This document shows positions 5,632 through 57,203 of a DNA stretch of 64,000 bases, one piece after another. The DNA is from an uncultured Candidatus Saccharibacteria bacterium (GTDB lineage Bacteria > Patescibacteriota > Minisyncoccia > UBA6257 > 1-14-0-10-44-23). The number at the start of each line of letters is the position of its first letter. Position 1 is the first letter of the stretch. A program made the translations under genes and the position numbers. Below the pieces are notes generated by a model. It did no database searches. It saw only the letters and a list, made by a program, of their open reading frames with translations, and was not told the DNA's origin. The DNA is taken from assembly GCA_964394435.1 (NCBI GenBank), contig CAYMXN010000001.1, positions 235,928 through 299,927 of the forward strand, in the 5' to 3' direction.

Positions 5632-5889
5632 CTATTTTACTCCAGCCCAATTTTTAACGTCTTCATAGCTCACCTCTCCACAAATCGTACTTCCGGTTTC
5701 GGTATTGATATAAAACGGAACGCCGCCGCACTTACCCTGATCATAGCTCTCCATTTTCTTTGCATTCTCTTCGTTGTGCCAAACCTCAAACTTTTCTACT
5801 TTTACTCCCGTCTCTTTTTCGAGTTGCTCGATGAGTGGCTGCATACGTACGCAGTGCGGGCACTCTTTTCCATAAAATTCTAATAACAT
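5632..5889 (-). CDS. thioredoxin-family small protein (CPHC active site)
   Basis: 85 aa. CPHC motif within the context FYGKECPHCVRM. Confidence 0.65.
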   Translation of the reverse strand: MLLEFYGKECPHCVRMQPLIEQLEKETGVKVEKFEVWHNEENAKKMESYDQGKCGGVPFYINTETGSTICGEVSYEDVKNWAGVK

Positions 5890-5989
5890 ATATGACTAAG
5901 ATATCATATAGTTTTTTGATTGCAAGATTCTTTTGGCTATTTTAAAAAATAAAACGCCCCAACCAATCGCTTGGTGGGGGCGGAAGAAC

Positions 5990-6118
5990 CTAGCGCCGAC
6001 GCCTGGCAAGCATCAACGCAGTCGCTTTGAGAAACTCGAAAGCGACCGGGGCGAGCGCCTCGATTCGCTTAAGCTCCTTGCGATACTCCACCGGATCAAC
6101 CGTGAAGATACGACCCAT
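5990..6118 (-). CDS. unannotated small ORF, 42 aa (MGRIFTVDPVEYRKELKRIEALAPVAFEFLKATALMLARRRR)
   Basis: AGGAGGG Shine-Dalgarno 5 nt upstream of the ATG. Immediately followed on the minus strand by hairpin CCCCACCAAGCGATTGGTTGGGG plus a T-run. Locally GC-elevated. Below the 60-aa cutoff of the ORF track. Confidence 0.45.
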   Translation of the reverse strand: MGRIFTVDPVEYRKELKRIEALAPVAFEFLKATALMLARRRR

Positions 6119-6185
6119 TCGACCCTCCTGGGGTATGAGAAATGACCTGCCTTGTTATACAACAGGCCTATGTCCACTGTGAAAA

Positions 6186-6593
6186 CTACGATTCGTCTGC
6201 GAGTTTGTTTACCGTAATCATTACCGTATCGGGAAGCCTAAATCCCCCAAGCAAAAACTGATACCCACCATCACTTATCGCGATACGCGTGACGCTTCCG
6301 AGTGAGATTTCTTTTGTTTGCGTGAAAGTCGATCCGCTCAAACGAAGATACGCGTTAACCTCTCCCGCCCAAATACACTGTACGTCTTTTGGACAGCGTG
6401 AGTCAGTTACCTGAATAAGCTCGATAGATAATCCATCTGGATACTGAACTGGTACGCCTTTCTCAATCTCAATTTTTGAACCATACTCAACCGTAGTTGG
6501 CTCTGGCAGCTTGTCTTTTTGAATACGAATCCAGGCGAATGCAGCGCCGGCAATTGCGAGAATAAGCAAGATGATTTCGATTTTTTTCTTCAT
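6186..6593 (-). CDS. membrane-anchored hypothetical protein
   Basis: Start moved to the internal ATG (MKKKIEIILLILAIAGAAF) to avoid overlap with the upstream gene. Single N-terminal TM helix. Confidence 0.45.
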   Translation of the reverse strand: MKKKIEIILLILAIAGAAFAWIRIQKDKLPEPTTVEYGSKIEIEKGVPVQYPDGLSIELIQVTDSRCPKDVQCIWAGEVNAYLRLSGSTFTQTKEISLGSVTRIAISDGGYQFLLGGFRLPDTVMITVNKLADES

Positions 6594-7515: not shown

Positions 7516-7605
7516 CGTACACCCCTTTTCTTAAGGACCTCAAGTATCGTATTCCTTCAACTTGTGCGTGTCAAAATGTCATATTTTATCACTATTTATG
7601 GGCTA

Positions 7606-7634
7606 TTGACATATATATGCTTATATGCTATAAT
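7606..7634 (+). promoter_or_regulatory. consensus sigma70 promoter TTGACA-N17-TATAAT with extended -10 (aTGcTATAAT)
   Basis: TTGACA at 7606-7611, 17-nt spacer, TATAAT at 7629-7634. About 110 nt upstream of the GC-rich ORF start. Confidence 0.6.
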
Positions 7635-7749
7635 GTACCTTAGAAAGCTGGTAAGTGGGACGTTCCCCTTGCTTGAGCTTTAGATCTTTGAGAAGAACAA
7701 GTCTGTGCGCTAAGAACGCACATTACGAAAGAAAGGCTCGGTTACTCGA

Positions 7750-8691
7750 ATGACCATGCACCACGTTCGCGCCACGATCTGCTTCGTGTCCCCCGACAAC
7801 CAGTGGGGGTTCGCGGAGGTCGTCGACTCGGAGACGGGCGACAAGAAGACGTGGATGTGCCACCGTCTCGGCCGTCGCGACGCGTTCGCGACGCAGCAGG
7901 GTACGATCACCTACTCCGACGCGAAGATCGCGTTCGGTCCCTTCCCGCAGCACGGCGACGTCGTCGTCGTGCTGGCGGAGAGGGCTCCCCAGGAGGGCAA
8001 GCAGTACCCCCAGGCCGTGTGGACCACGGCCGAGCAGTACGACCCCTTCATCGAGATCGCCGCGGGCAACCGCGCCGCCTTCGCCGAGTACGCTCGTGAG
8101 CAGGAGCGGCTCGCCGCCAAGCGGGCGGAGCTCGAGCAGAAGCTCGCCACCCGGCGGGTGGAGCTCGAGCCCCAGGTCGGGCCGCTGCAGAAGCGGTTCG
8201 CGATCCAGGACCTGTCCCCCATCTTCAACCCCCTGAAGATGACCCGGGTCGTCGTCAAGGAGCTCGGCCGCGAGCAGATGCTCGCGGAGACCGAGGACGG
8301 CGTCAAGGTCGTCCTGCCCCTGAACGTCCAGCACCTCGTGGTGATCAACCCGCGCGGCCCGTCGATCACGGCGGCGCCGGCGGCGACGCCCCGGATGCTG
8401 GCGATCGGCGAGGTCGCGTACGTGCGCAGCGCGTACGTGAGCATCCTCGAGGAGGACGAGGACCTCGTCCTCAAGATCCAGGCGAACGCCTGGATCAGCC
8501 AGCTCCAGGCGGAGCGGGTGGTGATGACGGGCCTCACGAAGGCCCAGAACACCCTCGCCATGAAGGCGGTGGAGGCCGCGGACACCGAGCGTCAGCGGCA
8601 GGAGGCGATCGCGCGGTCGCACATCAAGGGGCCGAAGCTGTCGCCCCCGCCCAAGGGCGGCATGGCGAAGGCGCTCGCTCGCGGGCGCTAG
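7750..8691 (+). CDS. GC-rich foreign-looking ORF, 313 aa; N-terminal OB-fold / cold-shock-like region then coiled-coil; function unknown
   Basis: Abrupt GC jump (to about 68% by eye) with strong GC3 codon bias. GAAAGAAAGG RBS. N-terminus (ICFVSPDNQWGFAEVVDSETGDKKTWMCH) resembles the cold-shock-domain core. Own terminator downstream. Confidence 0.6.
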   Translation: MTMHHVRATICFVSPDNQWGFAEVVDSETGDKKTWMCHRLGRRDAFATQQGTITYSDAKIAFGPFPQHGDVVVVLAERAPQEGKQYPQAVWTTAEQYDPFIEIAAGNRAAFAEYAREQERLAAKRAELEQKLATRRVELEPQVGPLQKRFAIQDLSPIFNPLKMTRVVVKELGREQMLAETEDGVKVVLPLNVQHLVVINPRGPSITAAPAATPRMLAIGEVAYVRSAYVSILEEDEDLVLKIQANAWISQLQAERVVMTGLTKAQNTLAMKAVEAADTERQRQEAIARSHIKGPKLSPPPKGGMAKALARGR

Positions 8692-8717
8692 CACGCACTA
8701 CCCCATCCTACGGGGTT

Positions 8718-8761
8718 GGCGCGGATGCAGATCGAAAGATCTTGTGTCCGCGCCTTTTTTA
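8718..8761 (+). terminator. rho-independent terminator of the GC-rich ORF
   Basis: GGCGCGGA...TCCGCGCC hairpin followed by a TTTTTTATTT run. Confidence 0.7.
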
Positions 8762-9598
8762 TTTAAACGCGCTTACAAATTTAAGCGGGTCGATTGAGAT
8801 GCCGTTTACCTTCAGCGAAAGGTGTAAGTGTGGTCCGGAAGCGTACCCGGTTTGCCCAACCGTTCCGATGATAGTTCCTTTTTTTACTTTCTGTCCTGGT
8901 CTTACACTCATCGAGTTCAAATGAAGATAGAGCGTCGCAATACCCTGTCCGTGATCGACGATAACCGAGTTGCCGTAAATCGAATCGAGATACGCTTTTT
9001 GTACTACCCCGTCGTTGATGACCGCCACTGGCGTACCAACTTTAGCAGTAAAGTCTACTCCGTAGTGATGAGTTACTTCGGTGCCAGTTTTGCGCGTCTC
9101 GCCATATGTACTGCCAATATTACGATTATCGTAAAGCGGCAGACCAAACCCACTCGTAAAATATATTTCCGGTGTTTTAGTTTCGAGATCTTTATTAATC
9201 TGGGTATTTGAGGTAGCTAAACTTTGCGTAAGCTGTTTTGGCGTAAGATTAAGCTTTTCTGGCACGGGAAGATTAATAACCGTAAATACTCCCGGGCGAA
9301 CGGTAAGTGTTTTTTCATACGTTGTCTGGTCTTCAAACGTAATGACTAGTTTGTGTGCTCCAGCCTTGGTCGCAAACGCGATTGGCACGAGCGCCCGATA
9401 CCCTCCTTGATACGCGAAGAGCGGAACTTCTTGGGCGTCATACATCACTTTGACTGGCTTTACCTCATTACTTATTTTGATTACGACAGTCTCTCCTTGG
9501 CGCGGGGTAAGTGTAGAAAAATTTGGCGCCGTAGCGTAAGCGTTTATTGCTAGGGCGAGTGCACATATCGAAATTATAAACGGGGATAATCGTCTCAT
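8759..9598 (-). CDS. M23 family (LytM-like) peptidase, secreted
   Basis: Signal peptide. HHYGVDF and GPHLHLSL metal-binding motifs. Confidence 0.8.
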   Translation of the reverse strand: MRRLSPFIISICALALAINAYATAPNFSTLTPRQGETVVIKISNEVKPVKVMYDAQEVPLFAYQGGYRALVPIAFATKAGAHKLVITFEDQTTYEKTLTVRPGVFTVINLPVPEKLNLTPKQLTQSLATSNTQINKDLETKTPEIYFTSGFGLPLYDNRNIGSTYGETRKTGTEVTHHYGVDFTAKVGTPVAVINDGVVQKAYLDSIYGNSVIVDHGQGIATLYLHLNSMSVRPGQKVKKGTIIGTVGQTGYASGPHLHLSLKVNGISIDPLKFVSAFK

Positions 9599-19798: not shown

Positions 19799-19826
19799 TT
19801 GACAAATATAATAGGTATGCTATACT
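19799..19826 (+). promoter_or_regulatory. sigma70 promoter (TTGACA-N16-gTATGcTATACT)
   Basis: Near-consensus hexamers with an extended -10 TG. No plus-strand CDS downstream. Confidence 0.5.
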
Positions 19827-19833
19827 AATTTTA

Positions 19834-20060
19834 TCCACGGGTGGGGAAACCAGCCCCGCGGACGCGCAAGCGGCGTTACGAAAATAACGTTGCGGGCGGC
19901 CACCTGGAGAAGTTAAGAAATCACTCTTGGGCTAACGGCCCACCCCGCTGGCACGGCGCGCAAGTGTCGTGCCAGCGGGCTCTACTCTAATTTAGGGGCA
20001 TCTACATCTAATATTCGCCCCGCCTAAAGGCCAGACTCTTCTCAGAGCTCTGGCCGCTTT
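19834..20060 (+). ncRNA. candidate structured GC-rich ncRNA (about 225 nt), unclassified
   Basis: Promoter upstream, terminator (GGCCAGAG…CTCTGGCC plus T7) downstream. Internal perfect stem GCTGGCACG-N12-CGTGCCAGC and GGGTGGGG/CCCCACCC segments. GC far above surroundings. No ORF with RBS. Confidence 0.4.
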
Positions 20061-43194: not shown

Positions 43195-43440
43195 TTACCA
43201 ATCCTTCATCGCAACTTTCGCCTTGCGCTTAATTTTTTGATACAAACGTACTGCTTTTTCTTCGACCCGCGGAGAAACGACCCGTAAAATTTCTCGGCCA
43301 AGGATCCGATACTGACCGCCAACCTTATTAGCTTTAATTACGCCTTTCTTAAGAAGACGTTTGATCGTACTCGTACTCACTTTTAGAAGCTCCTTAGTTT
43401 CGTCGCTCGTGTATACGGTATTTGGGTCGATACTGCTCAT
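43195..43440 (-). CDS. excisionase-type helix-turn-helix DNA-binding protein
   Basis: YTSDETKELLKVSTSTIKRLLKKGVIKANKVGGQYRI matches the excisionase/MerR-like HTH pattern. Start placed at MSSIDPN. Confidence 0.55.
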   Translation of the reverse strand: MSSIDPNTVYTSDETKELLKVSTSTIKRLLKKGVIKANKVGGQYRILGREILRVVSPRVEEKAVRLYQKIKRKAKVAMKDW

Positions 43441-43570
43441 ATCGCCTATTTTAGACGAAGTGTCAAAAGGTGTCAAAAAGGTTCATGGGGATAATCGGTA
43501 ATAAAAAGAGCGGACGATGTATCTCTACATTGTCCGCTCATCGCCCGCCTGTTGGCGGACGGGTGCGAAA

Positions 43571-44263
43571 CTAGTGACCGAAGCGGTAACCGTAACCCTG
43601 TGCACGCGCCCGATGGGCCGCCAACATCACCTCTACAAACGTGTGGCTCATGTCGTACGACCACTCTCCCTCGATCGGGAGCGTATCGAGAGAGTACCAC
43701 TCGAGGCCACTCGCCTCGGCCTGGTTGTCTCCGCTCTTCACCCCGAACACGACCTGCTGGTCGTGCGTACCCGCGTACGTCACGATGTGGGTCGAGGCGT
43801 AGCTGTGCTTGCCCGGGTCGTGGGAGAATCCGTTGCGATTACGACCGTCCATCTGAGGCGCGTACTGGCGCATACAGACCGGATGGGCCCAACCGAGCGG
43901 CAGCTCGACGTCGATGCCGAGATCGCTCTTGTAGTGGAACTTCAAGGCGTCCTCGATGGACTGGTAAAGTCCGACCACGCCGCCGACGATGGCGAGCTTG
44001 CCAGGAAAGCGCCCCGTCCGACGACGGATGACACCGCCGAGCAACTGACCCGTCTTCGGGTCCTGCTTGACGATGACGCCGTCGACACAGGGCACGGCAC
44101 CGAGCTTCGTACGCAAGGGCCAGACCGCTCCCGAGACCCGCCCGTCCGGCTGGACGAGCTGATCGAGATCCGAACGCTGGGCGAGGATCTCGGCGAGTTG
44201 CCGAGTGCTGTAGCCCACCAGCCGATCCGCAAGGTCGGCAGTCGAATCAGTCCTTTCGGACAT
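43571..44263 (-). CDS. GC-rich foreign-looking ORF, 231 aa; Nudix-fold-like with degenerate Nudix box
   Basis: GC jump with GC3 bias. GGAGGT RBS. Region VIVKQDPKTGQLLGGVIRRRTGRFPGKLAIVGGVVGLYQSIEDALKFHYKSDLGI follows Nudix fold topology but lacks the REx2EE catalytic residues. C-terminal LEWYSLDTLP…YDMSHTFVEVML resembles the Nudix C-terminal helix. Confidence 0.5.
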   Translation of the reverse strand: MSERTDSTADLADRLVGYSTRQLAEILAQRSDLDQLVQPDGRVSGAVWPLRTKLGAVPCVDGVIVKQDPKTGQLLGGVIRRRTGRFPGKLAIVGGVVGLYQSIEDALKFHYKSDLGIDVELPLGWAHPVCMRQYAPQMDGRNRNGFSHDPGKHSYASTHIVTYAGTHDQQVVFGVKSGDNQAEASGLEWYSLDTLPIEGEWSYDMSHTFVEVMLAAHRARAQGYGYRFGH

Positions 44264-44314
44264 CGGAAACCTCCGGGAAATACCCTCCGCAACCGATTGT
44301 TGTGGATTAGATAT

Positions 44315-44343
44315 GTTATAGCATAAAATATGCCCAAAGTCAA
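44315..44343 (-). promoter_or_regulatory. sigma70 promoter TTGACT-N17-TGcTATAAC on the minus strand driving the GC-rich ORF
   Basis: -35 at 44338-44343 and -10 at 44315-44320, read as the reverse complement. Confidence 0.55.
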
Positions 44344-46764: not shown

Positions 46765-49700
46765 CTATTCGTAGCTGACGTTGGCGATGGTGAACGGAAC
46801 AACCGTTGACTCGATCGAGATGTTGCTCGTCGTGCCATCGTTGAACGTGATACCCGAGGCAGCGTTGATAAGCGCTGAGAGGGAGTCAGAGGTGTTGGAA
46901 CCGTTGTAGAAGCTTGAGGAGTTCACACGAACCTTAGCAGCCTTCGTGGTGCCTGGGTCAACTGTGTATGACGGGTTAAACGTCACAGAACAGGAGTTAC
47001 CAGCACCTGGAGTGCAAGTCTGTTGAGCTGCACTGCCGAGAGCTGAGTTGGTGTTGGCGTCAAGAAGGTCAACCGTGAAAGCGGTCGAACCGTTGCTGAC
47101 AGCCTGACCAGAGAACTTGACCGTTACAGTACCAACTACAGCCTGGTAGGCCGAGTCAGCCGTAAAGTTCAAGGTTGCAAGGTCGTCAACCGCTACACGA
47201 GTACGGCCAGTGGATGAACCAAGGACCGCGCTTGAGAGCGAGAGCTTCGTGCGGTAAACCGTGACAGTGTTACCTGAAGCAGAACCAGACTTCGTAGCAG
47301 ACGTGTTCGAGTCCTTACCATACGCCGTAACGAAGTACGTCGGCTGGGAGAGACCGAATGCGTGGGTGCTGTTTGAAGTGGCACCACCAGAGCTGTACGT
47401 CGCAACATCACCCTTTACCACGAGGTTAACCGTACCGTTTTTCGGAACGATAACTGGGTTGAGGCTGAAGGTCGCCGTAGCAACTGAACTGCCAGACATC
47501 GTCATCGAGATAGGACCAGCTACCTGAGTAGAGCCGTTCCAGAGCGTTACGTTCTGGAATGAAGCGATACCAGCTGAACCGTTACCTACCGTGTCGGTGA
47601 GCGAGATGTCGGTTACGCGGATGTCCTCAACGTTGTCCGCGGTAAGGCGGATCGTTAAGAGGGCGTTGCCGGTTGAACCCATTACTACGTACTTAGAAGG
47701 CGCCGTGTCGGAGCCAGTAGCGACCGTAAGGGTTGGACCAGACGAGATTACGATACTCTGACCGTTAACTGCACCTGGGAAGGTAATCGCCGAGTTCGAG
47801 ATCGAACCCAAAGCGCTCCAACCGATGATGTCGATAACTGCAGAGTGAGTCGCAGCCGTCGAGCTGGTCAAGATGTCGGCGTAAACGTCAATCGTTACTG
47901 AACCACCCTGTGGAACAGTGACTGGGGTCGCAGCGCTGAACGCGAGCGAGGTTTCCGCATCACTGATCGTTGGGCGGGTCGTTCCGAACTGAGTCGAACC
48001 GATCATAACCTTCATGTTCTGCATGTCGAAGTTCGCGTTGCTGTCCTTGTCAAAGGTAAGCGACGAAAGGGTCGCACCCTGGGCTGAAGAAGCAGTTACG
48101 ATGAACGAAGCGACACGAGCGTTGTTGCTACCAGCGATAAACGTTGGTGAGTTAAACGCTGAGTTTACAGCAACCGTGAGCGGAGTCGTCGTAACAGCGA
48201 GCGTCGCGCCGGTTACAGAACCGGATGAAGCTGACTGGAACGAGGTCTGACCCTCAAGGTTTGTGCTGTTACCTGGCAAGCTGCCCTGGAGCGTCGTGAC
48301 GTCAGCACCCGAGAGGATGTCAACGACGAGCGAGACTACACGGACAGTGTTGGCCGGAACAATGTAGTTAATTGGGGATCCGGACGTACCGAAGTGGCAA
48401 GTAATCGAGCCGGAAGCGAGCGTACACTGACCGGAGGAAGAACCACCAGCAACAGTGTTGATCGCGTTACCAACCTGACCACCTACGTCATCGATAAGGC
48501 GGATGTTTTGGATGTCGTCCGTCGGAGCAGTAGCCCAGTTAGTACCGGAACCAACCTGCGAGATGGTCGCATCTAAGAACTTAACTTTAACTGCCTCACC
48601 AGCTGCATAAATGCGAGCGCGGAGAAGAGTTACGCCAGAGGCACCTACTGGAATTGGAGCAGTTGGGGTGTCTGAAGCGAGAGATACCGTGATCGAACCG
48701 GTGTTGATCGTAATCGTTGTCTGGTTCGTTGAGGTGATGGAGACCGTGATACCAGTGTTGTACTGGGTGTCGATCGCCGTGACCTTAAACGGCTGGAGCA
48801 ATGAGAACGTCAAAGTGCGGTTAGGGCTGCCGTTGATGTCAGCGAAAAGCTGAATCGTCGAGTTACCCGTGTTGAGCACGATACCCTCTGGGAAGTTGAA
48901 GTTGGTGTTCGTCGCGCCAGCTGCGAGAGTCGCAACCTGCGTGCCGTTAACCAAAAGCCTCAAATTCTGAACATCGCCTGGGTTAGCTGAACCGACCATG
49001 CTGAACTGCATGTTGGTGAGCTTGACCTTGCTGTTAGAAACGTTCGCAGTCCAAGATGAAACGAGGACCGAGGCCGTACCAGCATCAACTGTTGAACCTA
49101 CCGCGTTAGCAGTAAGAGTCATCGTTGAAAGTGATGGGTTGGAAACTGAAGTGACAGTCAAGGAAGCGGTGGAAACTGGAAGACCAGTAACCGTCGCACC
49201 CGTCGCCGTTACACCCTTAAGCTGCCAAGCGAGCGTGTTGCCAGCTGAAGCAGATGAAGAGAGGTCAAGGCGGAGCTCACCAGTCCAAGTCTGACCAGCT
49301 GGGATCATCAAGTTGAGACCCGAGAAGGTTGCGACTGAGTTGGTGAGTGACTGGAACTGAGCAACAACTTCACCGGTCGCCGCGTTGGCGAGGTAAAGGT
49401 TGTTGATGTTGCTGTCAGATACGACACCAACCTTGTTGAATGTAAGGCCAGTAACCGTTACTGCAGCGCCAGCTGGAGCGGTGAAAGCGAAGCGGCCAGC
49501 GTTGATCTGACCAGCTCCGGCGATTGCCGAGCCAATTGGGTTGTTACCAGCGAGGGTAACGTTAAGAGTGGAACCGGCTGGGAGTGAAACGCCCGTGCCA
49601 GTACCAGTGCCAGTGTTCACAGAGCCAGTGAAGGCTGCGCGAGACTTTGCACCGAAGTAACCAGAAGCTGGGGTGATGCCAGCAGAAGTCTGCCAGGCCA

Positions 49701-50034
49701 TAACCGCCGCCTTGGTGATGCTACCGAAGTAGCCCGTTGGGGAAACACTGAAGTGACCCTTTGACGCAAGAACCTGCTGGAGGCAAGTAACATCAGCGCC
49801 CTTTGAGCCCACGGTGAGGTCGCGGGTGAAGGAACATGCTGAGTTGCCGCCAGTCGAGTTGTTGAGCTGGGACTGCAGGTTAGCCAACGTTGCGAGCAAC
49901 GCGTTGATCTGAGTCTGGATGTCTGAAGCTGATTGCGCACCGGCAACCGCTACAAATGAACCAAAACCAGAGAGCGTAGCCGCAGTGGTTACCGTCAGGA
50001 TTACTGAGGCAACCTTGTTGCTAAATTTACTCAT
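46765..50034 (-). CDS. giant secreted surface protein (1089 aa) with peptidoglycan-binding domain and long Thr/Ser/Gly-rich beta-repeat region (S-layer-like)
   Basis: Signal peptide. PG_binding_1-like segment (GSKGADVTCLQQVLASKGHFSVSPTGYFGSITKAAVMAWQ). About 900 aa of low-complexity T/S/G/A/V-rich repeats. About 500 nt untranslated leader upstream. Confidence 0.7.
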   Translation of the reverse strand: MSKFSNKVASVILTVTTAATLSGFGSFVAVAGAQSASDIQTQINALLATLANLQSQLNNSTGGNSACSFTRDLTVGSKGADVTCLQQVLASKGHFSVSPTGYFGSITKAAVMAWQTSAGITPASGYFGAKSRAAFTGSVNTGTGTGTGVSLPAGSTLNVTLAGNNPIGSAIAGAGQINAGRFAFTAPAGAAVTVTGLTFNKVGVVSDSNINNLYLANAATGEVVAQFQSLTNSVATFSGLNLMIPAGQTWTGELRLDLSSSASAGNTLAWQLKGVTATGATVTGLPVSTASLTVTSVSNPSLSTMTLTANAVGSTVDAGTASVLVSSWTANVSNSKVKLTNMQFSMVGSANPGDVQNLRLLVNGTQVATLAAGATNTNFNFPEGIVLNTGNSTIQLFADINGSPNRTLTFSLLQPFKVTAIDTQYNTGITVSITSTNQTTITINTGSITVSLASDTPTAPIPVGASGVTLLRARIYAAGEAVKVKFLDATISQVGSGTNWATAPTDDIQNIRLIDDVGGQVGNAINTVAGGSSSGQCTLASGSITCHFGTSGSPINYIVPANTVRVVSLVVDILSGADVTTLQGSLPGNSTNLEGQTSFQSASSGSVTGATLAVTTTPLTVAVNSAFNSPTFIAGSNNARVASFIVTASSAQGATLSSLTFDKDSNANFDMQNMKVMIGSTQFGTTRPTISDAETSLAFSAATPVTVPQGGSVTIDVYADILTSSTAATHSAVIDIIGWSALGSISNSAITFPGAVNGQSIVISSGPTLTVATGSDTAPSKYVVMGSTGNALLTIRLTADNVEDIRVTDISLTDTVGNGSAGIASFQNVTLWNGSTQVAGPISMTMSGSSVATATFSLNPVIVPKNGTVNLVVKGDVATYSSGGATSNSTHAFGLSQPTYFVTAYGKDSNTSATKSGSASGNTVTVYRTKLSLSSAVLGSSTGRTRVAVDDLATLNFTADSAYQAVVGTVTVKFSGQAVSNGSTAFTVDLLDANTNSALGSAAQQTCTPGAGNSCSVTFNPSYTVDPGTTKAAKVRVNSSSFYNGSNTSDSLSALINAASGITFNDGTTSNISIESTVVPFTIANVSYE

Positions 50035-56142: not shown

Positions 56143-56976
56143 CTACGAGGCGAGACCCTTCTTCACCGCGGCGAGGACCACCTCGCCGTCGATTCCGCTG
56201 GCACCCCAGTAGGCGGGCTGTCCCGCCTTGCCGAGGCCTGCGCCACCCGACCAGCCACCCAAGTGCTCCTTCAAGCTGGCACAGAGCGCGCCGTCCCCGT
56301 AGAAGTTCACCTCCCCGTCCTTCGAGAGGATGAGGAGCTGGTCGACGGCCCCGTAGAGGCGGTCAGCGACCGCTGAGGTCTTCGAGTGGTCCATGCGGAC
56401 CACCGTCAGACGTCCGTCCACCTCCTTCGCGCCGATGGCGCGGAGGGCCTCTGTCTCGTGCGCGGGGGTCACCCCCTGCGCCGCACGGTCTAGCGCACGA
56501 ATGCGCTCGACCTCGGCGTCAGATGCCCCGAGCGCCCGCATCGCAGGGACGTACCCCGCGTCGTTGGCACCTACGAGCTCGATCCAGCGACGAGTCTGCT
56601 CGCTGGTCGGCATCTTAATCAGTGCCAAAACCTGCTGCACCGCCGGGGGACGGTGCGACTGGTCGCCGTGATGGTCGACGACCACCACCTCAGTCTGCTC
56701 CGGCCACTCCTTGGTCGGCGAGCACTCGACGAAGATGACGCATTCGATGCCGGCACACCGCGTCGACTTACGGTTGTGCTGCCAGAAGTCTGGTCCGGTC
56801 TGGACCAGGATCTCCTCGACCGTGAGGCCAAGGTCGCCTGCGGCGGCGTAGACATGCGACCCCCAGCCCTTGTTGGGCTGGACCCACTTCTCACCCGCGA
56901 GGGTGAGGAGAGAGCGAACGACCTCCATTTCGAGGTCGTTCCCGCCGAGTACGAACAAACGGTTGGCCTTACCCAT
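56143..56976 (-). CDS. GC-rich foreign-looking ORF, 277 aa; DHH-like phosphoesterase?
   Basis: GC jump with GC3 bias. Start at MGKANRLFVLGG with GGAG RBS. VVVDHHGD (DHH motif III-like) and LGGNDLEMEVVRSLL (motif I-like, substituted). C-terminal Gly-rich GGWSGGAGLGKAG where DHHA1 has GGGH. Weak assignment. Confidence 0.45.
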   Translation of the reverse strand: MGKANRLFVLGGNDLEMEVVRSLLTLAGEKWVQPNKGWGSHVYAAAGDLGLTVEEILVQTGPDFWQHNRKSTRCAGIECVIFVECSPTKEWPEQTEVVVVDHHGDQSHRPPAVQQVLALIKMPTSEQTRRWIELVGANDAGYVPAMRALGASDAEVERIRALDRAAQGVTPAHETEALRAIGAKEVDGRLTVVRMDHSKTSAVADRLYGAVDQLLILSKDGEVNFYGDGALCASLKEHLGGWSGGAGLGKAGQPAYWGASGIDGEVVLAAVKKGLAS

Positions 56977-57174
56977 CGAAATCTCCAGTTGGTCCGGAAG
57001 GACCGTGAATCCACTTCGGGCGTTTCCGCTCAGGTAGGACGACACCTCTGGATAAGCACTTTATTTTACAACCCGGCTTGGAAGGTTGTCCGCTCTGCGA
57101 GCAGCGTTTTAGGCGCAAATACGCTCAAAACACTGCTCACGAACGGTCTATTTCAATGAACGACTTAGATATTT

Positions 57175-57203
57175 AATATAGCATATTTTTATGCTTTTGT
57201 CAA
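57175..57203 (-). promoter_or_regulatory. sigma70 promoter TTGACA-N17-TGcTATATT on the minus strand driving the GC-rich ORF, followed by long structured leader
   Basis: -35 at 57198-57203 and -10 at 57175-57180. Leader contains inverted repeat GAGCAGCGTTTTAG…CTCAAAACACTGCTC. Confidence 0.5.

Follow-up and report, generated by a model that had tools for sequence, protein, structure and literature searches.

A native gene of Saccharibacteria with a G+C-saturated coding sequence

Atypical composition is routinely taken as horizontal transfer, and MAG curation may discard such segments as contamination. Small gene sets can also be set apart by synonymous-codon content, as in codon-defined regulons, which include the bldA/TTA genes of Streptomyces, modification-tunable transcripts and the ACA-less mRNAs that resist MazF. 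Genes of the cspA type combine a very strong promoter with a structured 5' UTR of considerable length (about 160 nt for cspA of E. coli) and a monocistronic layout. We know of no csp gene for which a G+C-saturated coding sequence is a described feature, and our literature search turned up no account of G+C-saturated genes for either Saccharibacteria or CPR.

The gene described here, gene A, lies in a 64-kb stretch of Saccharibacteria chromosome (the window) and resembles each of these systems in part. It shares with cspA-type genes the long structured 5' UTR (about 110 nt), the monocistronic layout and a promoter predicted to be very strong. Unlike them, it is fast-evolving and has a G+C-saturated coding sequence, and its product has no Pfam CSD match, is four times longer and is modelled with two beta domains, a pair of long helices and a basic tail. 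In contrast to S1-domain proteins (bS1, the NusA S1 domain, IF1), the product has coiled-coil spacers between its domains and matches neither PF00575 nor any PDB chain in sequence; in contrast to core translation factors, it is hypervariable between close relatives. Like horizontally acquired genomic islands, the gene has a strongly atypical (GC3 z = 8.7) and sharply bounded composition, but cluster and profile searches place no closest homologue in a donor lineage, no mobility genes, tRNA or repeats mark its borders, and it occupies the same locus in four genomes rather than being patchily present. Its composition has been maintained, with GC3 at or above 0.95 in all four orthologues, where islands ameliorate. 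Codon-defined regulons offer an analogy in which conditional or protected expression is plausible, although gene A is saturated over its whole CDS, not at one rare codon or motif, and has no identified cognate tRNA, modification or nuclease.

The gene and its surroundings contain the following features.

7606-7611, plus strand: -35 hexamer TTGACA, invariant (TATTGACAT) across the four orthologous loci
7626-7634, plus strand: extended -10 element TGCTATAAT, with TG at 7626-7627 and TATAAT at 7629-7634
7644-7681, plus strand: 5'-proximal leader stem-loop; predicted transcription start at about 7641
7704-7722, plus strand: small leader hairpin TGTGCGCTAAGAACGCACA (TGTGCGC-TAAGA-ACGCACA), just 5' of the ribosome-binding site
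7727-7736, plus strand: purine-rich ribosome-binding site GAAAGAAAGG; AAGAAAG is kept in L002 and L003
7750-8691, plus strand: CDS A, 313 aa
8102-8167, plus strand: 33-nt tandem duplication within the CDS, giving two 11-residue units in the first long helix of the A protein
7723-8694 and 7911-8585, minus strand: antisense ORFs across CDS A
8700-8716, plus strand: first 3'-UTR hairpin; L003 has the same architecture, as does L002 with a different sequence
8718-8760, plus strand: predicted intrinsic terminator, a long G+C-rich hairpin at 8718-8754 followed by a U-run

An earlier note, made from the letters alone, had described a GC-rich island of G/C-ending codons with an alien-looking, actinobacterial-style signature, and as a description this holds. 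CDS A has 69.5% GC and a GC3 of 0.968 (A 0.00 and T 0.03 at third codon positions), compared with 48.0% GC for the whole window and a GC3 of 0.487 +/- 0.056 (maximum 0.62) for its 59 other long ORFs. In the windowed profile that the note had proposed (60-nt sliding), the rich block coincides exactly with the CDS, start codon to stop codon; 7560-7720 upstream has 30-43% GC. No direct repeats flanking the block were found. The antisense ORFs had been called GC artefacts, and they do stay open because A is absent from the sense third codon positions; an antisense gene as the true coding frame was rejected, the C/G toggling at sense third positions being non-synonymous in antisense.

Codon choice in the family is close to absolute. 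Lys, Glu and Gln are encoded exclusively by AAG, GAG and CAG (AAA in 0 of 136 Lys codons), and TTR and AGR account for only 3% of Leu and 1% of Arg codons, respectively. The bias in gene A thus reaches synonymous first positions, with CTN preferred over TTR and CGN over AGR, and the residual T-ending codons are mostly CGT, GGT and GCT. With G or C at every free choice, A/U runs in the message stop at 2 nt, as do A/T runs in CDS A; runs of at least 3 nt are absent from four A-family genes, compared with 63-79 per kb in native genes. Ordinary expression-linked codon bias was considered and rejected. GroES has native composition without G/C-ending bias, and the GroEL and L28 genes of the window, whose products are abundant, have GC3 values of 0.55 and 0.48; high expression by itself therefore does not produce the signature of gene A.

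The regulatory signals fared equally well under scrutiny: the perfect TTGACA-N17-TATAAT promoter with its extended -10 TG lies at 7606-7634 as first described, and the leader hairpin, ribosome-binding site and hairpin plus T-run terminator are likewise in place. With its 17-nt spacer, this promoter is the sole 12/12 consensus match in 64 kb, and matches of at least 11/12 number six against 0.87 expected from Markov simulations. Consensus promoters of this genome are A/T-rich. The block ATATGCTATAATG around the extended -10 is unchanged in four genomes, and the strict pattern TTGAC-N15-TGnTATAMT occurred six times in 26 fetched loci, each time preceding an A-family gene. The leader of about 110 nt contains A/U-rich stretches and, by folding, a hairpin begins 0-8 nt from the predicted 5' end in 7/7 A-family leaders. 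At the position of the small hairpin, orthologue hairpins differ in sequence and 2/4 pairs are kept via two-sided changes, in a covariation analysis of four sequences that has little power to establish conserved structure. The 3' end folds at an MFE of -36 kcal/mol (z = -6.3; 0/200 shuffles fold as well), and the terminator is convergent with an M23 peptidase gene (8759-9598, minus strand). No Rfam match was obtained on 7560-8800 at a permissive threshold. At the sequence level the unit has a sigma-70 promoter and an intrinsic terminator, and the invariance of the promoter core in four related genomes indicates that its signals are native. The earlier note's pairing of alien composition with native signals thus survives for the signals, not for a foreign origin.

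Gene A adjoins the M23 peptidase gene in the window, L002, L003/L004 and L005, which is one locus in four genomes from independent samples, and the M23 neighbour shares 82% identity with an M23 peptidase from a Ca. Saccharibacteria MAG. The orthologous A proteins are 40-59% identical, with GC3 of 0.968, 0.952, 0.967 and 0.968 (window gene included). A search against 5.8 billion sequence clusters yielded only three matches, all in an M23-flanked context of Saccharibacteria type. Only six came from profile searching over 1.84 billion protein representatives, of which five are the query family and distant relatives and the sixth was judged spurious; this search added three distant relatives, on contigs not high in G+C. 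No further members were found in JGI metagenome contigs or IMG/VR viral contigs. Distant homologues on other contigs (about 25% identity) have GC3 of 0.993 (L022), 0.987 (L023) and, in a short member, only 0.871 (L024), and hhalign identifies P0106 as a full-length homologue (probability 97%). A-family homologues sit in contexts of 45-58% GC beside neighbours of GC3 0.42-0.70. A candidate short paralogue in L005 has native GC3 (0.475), its homology being weak (hhalign probability 38%). The 8-sequence family alignment was too divergent for pattern design.

The composition has persisted through long divergence. Fourfold sites of A-family genes differ at 33-63%, near saturation, and twofold sites at 0-7%; the corresponding ranges in the M23 neighbour are 36-56% and 22-37%. 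Frozen twofold beside near-saturated fourfold sites imply that A/T-ending codons have been excluded throughout, and G/C endings kept through near-saturating synonymous change are not what a transferred gene in decay would show. The locus is a mosaic in its sequence identity, with 90-95% among three genomes over the final 120 nt of the CDS and the 3' UTR but 25-60% in the middle, and between L003 and L005 the M23 proteins are 95% identical but the A proteins 48%. Close low-GC homologues had been named as the finding that would speak against a foreign origin. None turned up, every homologue having GC3 of 0.87-0.99; the comparison of twofold with fourfold sites is the stronger comparative test and, on these alignments, argues against such an origin. 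The suspected assembly chimera is contradicted by the independent assembly L001, which spans the leader/CDS and right junctions, and by orthologous loci from other samples, which span both. On this evidence island A is a monocistronic unit native to the chromosome of a Saccharibacteria (Patescibacteria/CPR) bacterium and not a chimera. A foreign origin, implied at the outset as actinobacterial, is not supported, given synteny in four Saccharibacteria genomes and the lack of any credible homologue outside the family in the cluster and profile searches. The "foreign" look is apparently native and actively maintained.

The 313-aa product is lineage-restricted and fast-evolving. It models as two S1/cold-shock-like beta-barrels with long helices between them and a basic tail; in the structure model the order is an OB-like beta-barrel, a helix, a second beta domain, a helix and the tail, the last of which is conserved. 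This is consistent with the OB-like N-terminus and coiled coil proposed from the sequence. No family was matched in Pfam, PHROGs or NCBIfam (Pfam/NCBIfam at E <= 0.01-1), the cold-shock (PF00313) and S1 (PF00575) profiles included, and the PDB profile search hit nothing relevant, its sole result being a designed helical protein (E = 0.19). By eye, WGFAE and TWMCH are loose look-alikes of RNP1 (K-G-F-G-F-I) and RNP2 (V-F-V-H). BLASTP of the N-terminal half against the C-terminal half gave no alignment that would indicate internal duplication, and neither the A protein nor its distant homologues matched PADLOC defence-protein models. Most likely the A protein oligomerises and binds single-stranded nucleic acid, probably RNA.

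Three further units in the window share the promoter flavour of gene A, two of them coding islands of the same compositional class.

43571-44343, minus strand: island B; CDS 43571-44263 encodes a 230-aa DUF4916/Nudix-like protein (GC3 0.80), and the promoter TTGACT-N17-TATAAC at 44315-44343 carries ATGCTATA
56143-57203, minus strand: island C; CDS 56143-56976 encodes a 277-aa DHH-family hydrolase (GC3 0.84) between dnaG and rpoD, with a leader of about 190 nt and a promoter at 57175-57203 that carries ATGCTATA
19799-20060, plus strand: a TTGACA-N16-TGCTATACT promoter and a G+C-rich structured RNA of about 225 nt ending in a terminator

Twofold sites of island C differ by 0.19 between the window and L016, versus 0.37-0.42 in flanking genes, which suggests that C behaves like A, more weakly. 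Islands B and C belong to CPR-wide families whose homologues in other CPR lineages have native composition. Island C alone matches PADLOC models (DHH_CorA and C3a116), and the structured RNA matched no RNA family. There is a hint that A, B, C and the RNA belong to a small expression class defined by composition, perhaps one linked to RNA turnover.

Tentatively, with a rough probability of 0.4, we favour a reading in which gene A is native, strongly expressed and selected for the nucleotide content of its CDS, both the expression level and the reason for selection being taken from the sequence features. Its near-perfect extended -10 sigma-70 promoter, stem-loop-headed leader and double-hairpin terminator would equip it for strong, robust expression, and the choice of G or C wherever the code allows would be a selected property of the CDS. 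The benefit would most likely lie at the RNA level, in a message with hairpins at both ends and no A/U-rich single-stranded stretches. Such a message may evade endonucleases and RNA-binding proteins that target A/U, perhaps even the A protein itself, and would be long-lived as a result. Against this, the A/U-rich stretches of the leader would leave protection from leader-cutting endonucleases incomplete, and strong selection at some 300 synonymous sites would be surprising in CPR symbionts, whose effective populations are considered small. Also at odds with it are the short L024 member, at GC3 0.87 only, the weakly homologous L005 candidate at its native value, and the GroEL and L28 genes, which lack the signature.

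Selection could instead act on translation, G/C-ending codons being chosen for decoding without wobble-base modifications (queuosine, xm5s2U): G34 tRNAs decode C-ending codons by direct pairing, C34 tRNAs read the G-ending ones, an epibiont dependent on its host may lack the precursors of these modifications, and A, B and C would be a codon-defined regulon, translatable under starvation or especially efficiently translated. The exclusive use of AAG, GAG and CAG fits, as do the bias and promoter flavour common to three genes, the tRNA-Pro(CGG) gene in the window and the remaining T-ending codons, since CGT, GGT and GCT are typically favoured in highly expressed bacterial genes. A third-position rule does not, however, predict the choice of CTN over TTG and CGN over AGG, and GroEL, GroES and L28 show no such bias; we consider this explanation unlikely. 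Pressure on the DNA itself, with G+C saturation shielding the gene from A/T-directed factors (silencing nucleoid proteins, nucleases, Argonaute-type systems needing easily melted DNA, insertion elements) or suppressing spurious internal promoters, as would matter in a very heavily transcribed gene, suits a bias in nucleotides rather than particular codons, A/T runs of at most 2 nt and the A/T-rich consensus promoters of this genome. It leaves the choice of exactly these genes unexplained, no A/T-directed factor was identified within the window, and these data cannot separate it from selection on RNA; it seems quite improbable. About equally doubtful is GC-biased gene conversion at a recombination hot spot, with frequent allele exchange and biased heteroduplex repair in place of selection. 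The mosaic identity along the locus and the disparity between M23 and A proteins in L003 and L005 speak for it, but the enrichment has its limits precisely at the start and stop codons, ordinary G+C prevails in the leader and 3' UTR inherited with the CDS, the bias is strongest at the silent positions of the code, very distant family members in other genomes bear the same signature, and we know of no bacterial precedent for single-gene runaway conversion to GC3 0.99.

Acquisition of A, single or repeated, from high-G+C Actinobacteria or their mobile elements under a native promoter has in its favour a codon table that fits a high-G+C actinobacterium, the DNA exchange evident from allele mosaicism at the locus, and the lifestyle of Saccharibacteria, which are naturally competent and live on Actinobacteria, their usual hosts. 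We regard it as very improbable and largely refuted: no search turned up a convincing homologue from actinobacteria or viruses, the promoter, leader and terminator, all low in G+C, are conserved with synteny across four genomes, the GC block is the CDS without flanking foreign DNA, amelioration is absent over a divergence that saturated the neighbours, and islands B and C have their native-composition homologues in other CPR lineages. More speculative still, and extremely improbable, is a cassette written in the host's dialect for expression inside a high-G+C actinobacterial host after transfer of epibiont DNA or RNA, which would make it a bacterial analogue of Agrobacterium T-DNA genes with their recipient-suited signals. 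The consensus promoter (universal), actinobacterial-style codons and strong terminator would then form a self-contained unit, and in one variant the conserved, positively charged C-terminal tail could be a secretion signal delivering the A protein itself. Yet B and C, which share composition and promoter flavour, are enzymes of housekeeping type that have homologues across the CPR, GC3 lies close to 1.0 regardless of genome, and neither transfer borders nor transfer machinery was seen.

Under the preferred reading of selection on coding-sequence composition, A is an island of atypical composition that has descended vertically and been actively kept, and throughout the family essentially all silent sites carry G or C, in contexts of 45-58% G+C. 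Saccharibacteria are now genetically manipulable, so that any benefit of G+C saturation is directly testable by synonymous recoding. The implication is that unusually strong selection, or an unknown biased process, acts on base composition in a few coding sequences of these ultrasmall, host-dependent bacteria.

The G+C-rich block that an earlier note had called is real and lies where it was placed. The island A coding sequence (7750-8691, +; 313 aa) has 69.5% GC and a GC3 of 0.968, with A and T at frequencies of 0.00 and 0.03 at third codon positions. The whole window has 48% GC, and GC3 in its 59 other long ORFs is 0.487 ± 0.056 (maximum 0.62), placing A 8.7 standard deviations out. In a 60-nt sliding profile the block runs from the start codon to the stop codon of A; the promoter and leader region has 30-43% GC. 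Across the A family (A and its relatives at other loci), CTC and CTG account for 97% of Leu codons and TTG for 3%, CGN accounts for 99% of Arg codons, and AAA encodes 0 of 136 Lys residues. Runs of A/T of at least 3 nt occur 63-79 times per kb in native genes and are absent from the A genes of the window, of L005 (a Ca. Saccharibacteria MAG) and of L022 and L023 (loci from other contigs). This absence results from codon choice for G/C at and beyond the third position, and the pressure on the family acts on nucleotide content, not on the third position alone.

The signals described for A in the earlier note, a perfect TTGACA-N17-TATAAT promoter with extended -10 TG (7606-7634), a leader hairpin, an RBS and a hairpin plus T-run terminator, were all found:

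7606-7611 (+), -35 TTGACA, 17-nt spacer to the -10
7626-7627 and 7629-7634 (+), TG and TATAAT of the extended -10
7704-7722 (+), small leader hairpin
7727-7736 (+), purine-rich RBS
8700-8760 (+), 3' end, two hairpins followed by a U-run (-36 kcal/mol, z = -6.3)

The A promoter is the sole 12/12 match within the 64-kb window, where six matches of at least 11/12 were observed and 0.87 expected. Its core, TATTGACAT...ATATGCTATAATG, is invariant across four orthologous loci, and TTGAC, a 16-17 nt spacer and a TG-extended TATAA(T/C) precede 7/7 A-family members. The strict pattern TTGAC-N15-TGnTATAMT occurred six times in ~190 kb of fetched loci, each time before an A-family gene. Leaders are 64-109 nt long (n = 7), counted from the predicted transcription start, and each is predicted to begin with a stable hairpin at a distance of 0-8 nt from its inferred 5' end. 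A G+C-rich hairpin pair and then a U-run close all three folded terminators (window, L003, L002). An architecture of predicted strong promoter, leader and terminator is shown to be conserved in the A family.

A is flanked by an M23 peptidase gene (8759-9598, -) whose product is 82% identical to that of L005. Elsewhere the window looks like an ordinary small-genome chromosome, with genes for GroES/EL, DnaG, RpoD, AlaS, glycosyltransferases, RNA methyltransferases and a P-type ATPase. An independent assembly from one sequencing run (L001) carries an identical A together with the leader end, terminator and M23 start; A orthologues adjoin M23 at the same place in three other samples (L002, L003/L004, L005); and both sides of island C, a further G+C-rich island of the window, are spanned in five further assemblies. 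These observations exclude an assembly chimera, for which the earlier note had wanted the junctions checked. No flanking repeats or mobility genes were found at the borders of the block. The A locus is shown to be native and syntenic.

G+C saturation recurs across the family: GC3 is 0.968 in the window, 0.952 in L002, 0.967 in L003, 0.968 in L005, 0.993 in L022, 0.987 in L023 and 0.871 in the short form, L024; neighbouring genes have 0.42-0.70. Fourfold and twofold silent sites were compared at identical amino acids, with fourfold saturation estimated at ~0.5 from A-family codon frequencies. Fourfold sites differ at 33-63% among A-family genes, nearly all by C/G exchange, whereas twofold sites, where any change gives an A/T ending, differ at 0-7%. 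For the M23 neighbour the values are 36-56% and 22-37%. Fourfold sites near saturation beside frozen twofold sites imply that silent turnover has been extensive and that A/T endings have been continuously excluded. The saturation is shown to be family-wide, confined to the coding sequence and kept through near-saturating silent divergence. A non-exhaustive literature search found no account of this phenomenon.

A is very rare: only three proteins came back when 5.8 billion clusters were searched by word index, and a full HMMER profile search against 1.84 billion representatives returned six: two of the A family itself, three distant relatives (P0106, P0108, P0109) and one, an actinobacterial-looking repeat protein matched over only a 70-residue stretch, judged spurious. 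For P0106, homology extends along the entire protein (hhalign probability 97%). In L005 an additional 161-aa ORF (5703-6188, -) separates the M23 gene from the A orthologue. This doubtful short paralogue shows weak similarity to A in its C-terminal half (of A; hhalign E = 3.4e-4, probability 38%), has a native GC3 of 0.475 and has no counterpart in the window. Directly downstream of the distant A-family gene in L023 is a 72-aa Cys-rich ORF (2076-2294, +; GC3 0.81) with its own TTGACA promoter; this ORF could likewise belong to the G+C-coded class.

Other G+C-rich units of the window were as follows:

43571-44263 (-), island B CDS, 230 aa, DUF4916/Nudix-like, GC3 0.80
43571-44343 (-), island B unit with its own promoter, TTGACT-N17-TATAAC
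56143-56976 (-), island C CDS, 277 aa, DHH-family hydrolase, GC3 0.84
56143-57203 (-), island C unit, leader of ~190 nt
19799-20060 (+), near-consensus promoter TTGACA-N16-TGCTATACT and structured RNA of ~225 nt

Exactly four copies of the octamer ATGCTATA are present in the window, one each at the -10 of A, B, C and the promoter at 19799. Island C, inserted between dnaG and rpoD, matched the PADLOC DHH-family hydrolase models DHH_CorA (4.6e-31) and C3a116 (7.6e-47). A diverged relative (L016/L017) has the same dnaG-C-rpoD-alaS order and a C orthologue with GC3 0.87; twofold-site change between the two is 0.19 in C and 0.37-0.42 in flanking genes. In other CPR lineages, homologues of B and C are native in composition. 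Immediately downstream of B is a small HTH_17 (excisionase-like) gene (43195-43476, -). The G+C-rich, highly structured RNA at 19799-20060 (MFE -108.7 kcal/mol, z = -6.25), which that promoter drives, ends in a hairpin and T-run. It matches no Rfam family, is neither tRNA nor tmRNA and holds no ORF of at least 60 aa, and is a candidate for a new small RNA. The ORF at 46765-50034 (-) encodes a 1089-aa protein that has a PG_binding_1 domain and, at its N terminus, a signal-like segment. It spans 3.2 kb of raised G+C (0.54) with a positive GC skew, where most of the window has the opposite sign.

The A protein had no match in Pfam, NCBIfam, PHROG, PADLOC or PDB sequences. An AF2 model built from a three-sequence alignment (pLDDT 70) gives an N-terminal five-stranded barrel, a 50-residue helix, a second beta domain, a 40-residue helix and a disordered basic tail. 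By fold resemblance only, the protein may bind single-stranded nucleic acid and oligomerise via coiled coils. Across the family, its most conserved parts are a C-terminal helix motif (K-A-A-x-T-L-A ... E-R-x-R-Q-A) and a Gly/Lys/Arg tail. DNA identity at the locus is a mosaic, 90-95% in the last 120 nt and 3' UTR (three genomes) and 25-60% in the middle, which points to exchange of alleles, or else to central helices and a second domain under very relaxed constraint. Within A, a 33-nt tandem duplication (8102-8167, +; 79% identical) gives the first long helix two units of 11 residues each (ERLAAKRAELE / QKLATRRVELE).

The earlier note had seen an actinobacterial-type codon signature in A, which taken at face value would mean horizontal transfer. 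That reading is disfavoured because no donors were found in the cluster and profile searches, the locus is syntenic and the twofold sites are frozen; a relic of transfer would have drifted far toward the genomic GC3 of ~0.49 over such divergence. Protein identity among A orthologues is only 40-59%, against 81-95% for their M23 neighbours, which means that A is no recent common import. If the locus recombines, GC-biased gene conversion could also raise G+C; conversion is likewise disfavoured, because the enrichment ends at the start and stop codons and the UTRs, although co-inherited, are ordinary. We consider A native and maintained, not foreign, with a probability of roughly 0.75, and infer that selection acts on the composition of its coding sequence.

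The benefit of maintained saturation is placed, by preference, at the RNA level. A message lacking A/U-rich single-stranded stretches, with a hairpin at each end, should withstand endonucleases and binders that target A/U, among them possibly the S1/CSD-like A product itself. The A leader does contain A/U, a caveat on this mechanism, and saturation has exceptions in the short L024 member (GC3 only 0.87) and the doubtful native L005 paralogue. Rival accounts are selection at decoding, for independence from wobble modifications, and protection by G+C saturation at the DNA level. The full statement, native and maintained with an RNA-level mechanism, is put forward tentatively, at somewhat less than even odds. 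In CPR symbionts, strong selection at synonymous sites is not to be expected.

The suspicion that antisense ORFs across A are artefacts was borne out: they stay open over long distances since sense third positions lack A. The longer spans 7723-8694 (323 aa). The sole source of the exact A protein in a large protein collection was a 1.3-kb Logan contig, whereas proteins C and GroEL of the window came from a 320-kb NCBI contig. In the MAG, the longer antisense ORF may have been called as the gene instead of A, in which case the A family would be hidden from annotation.
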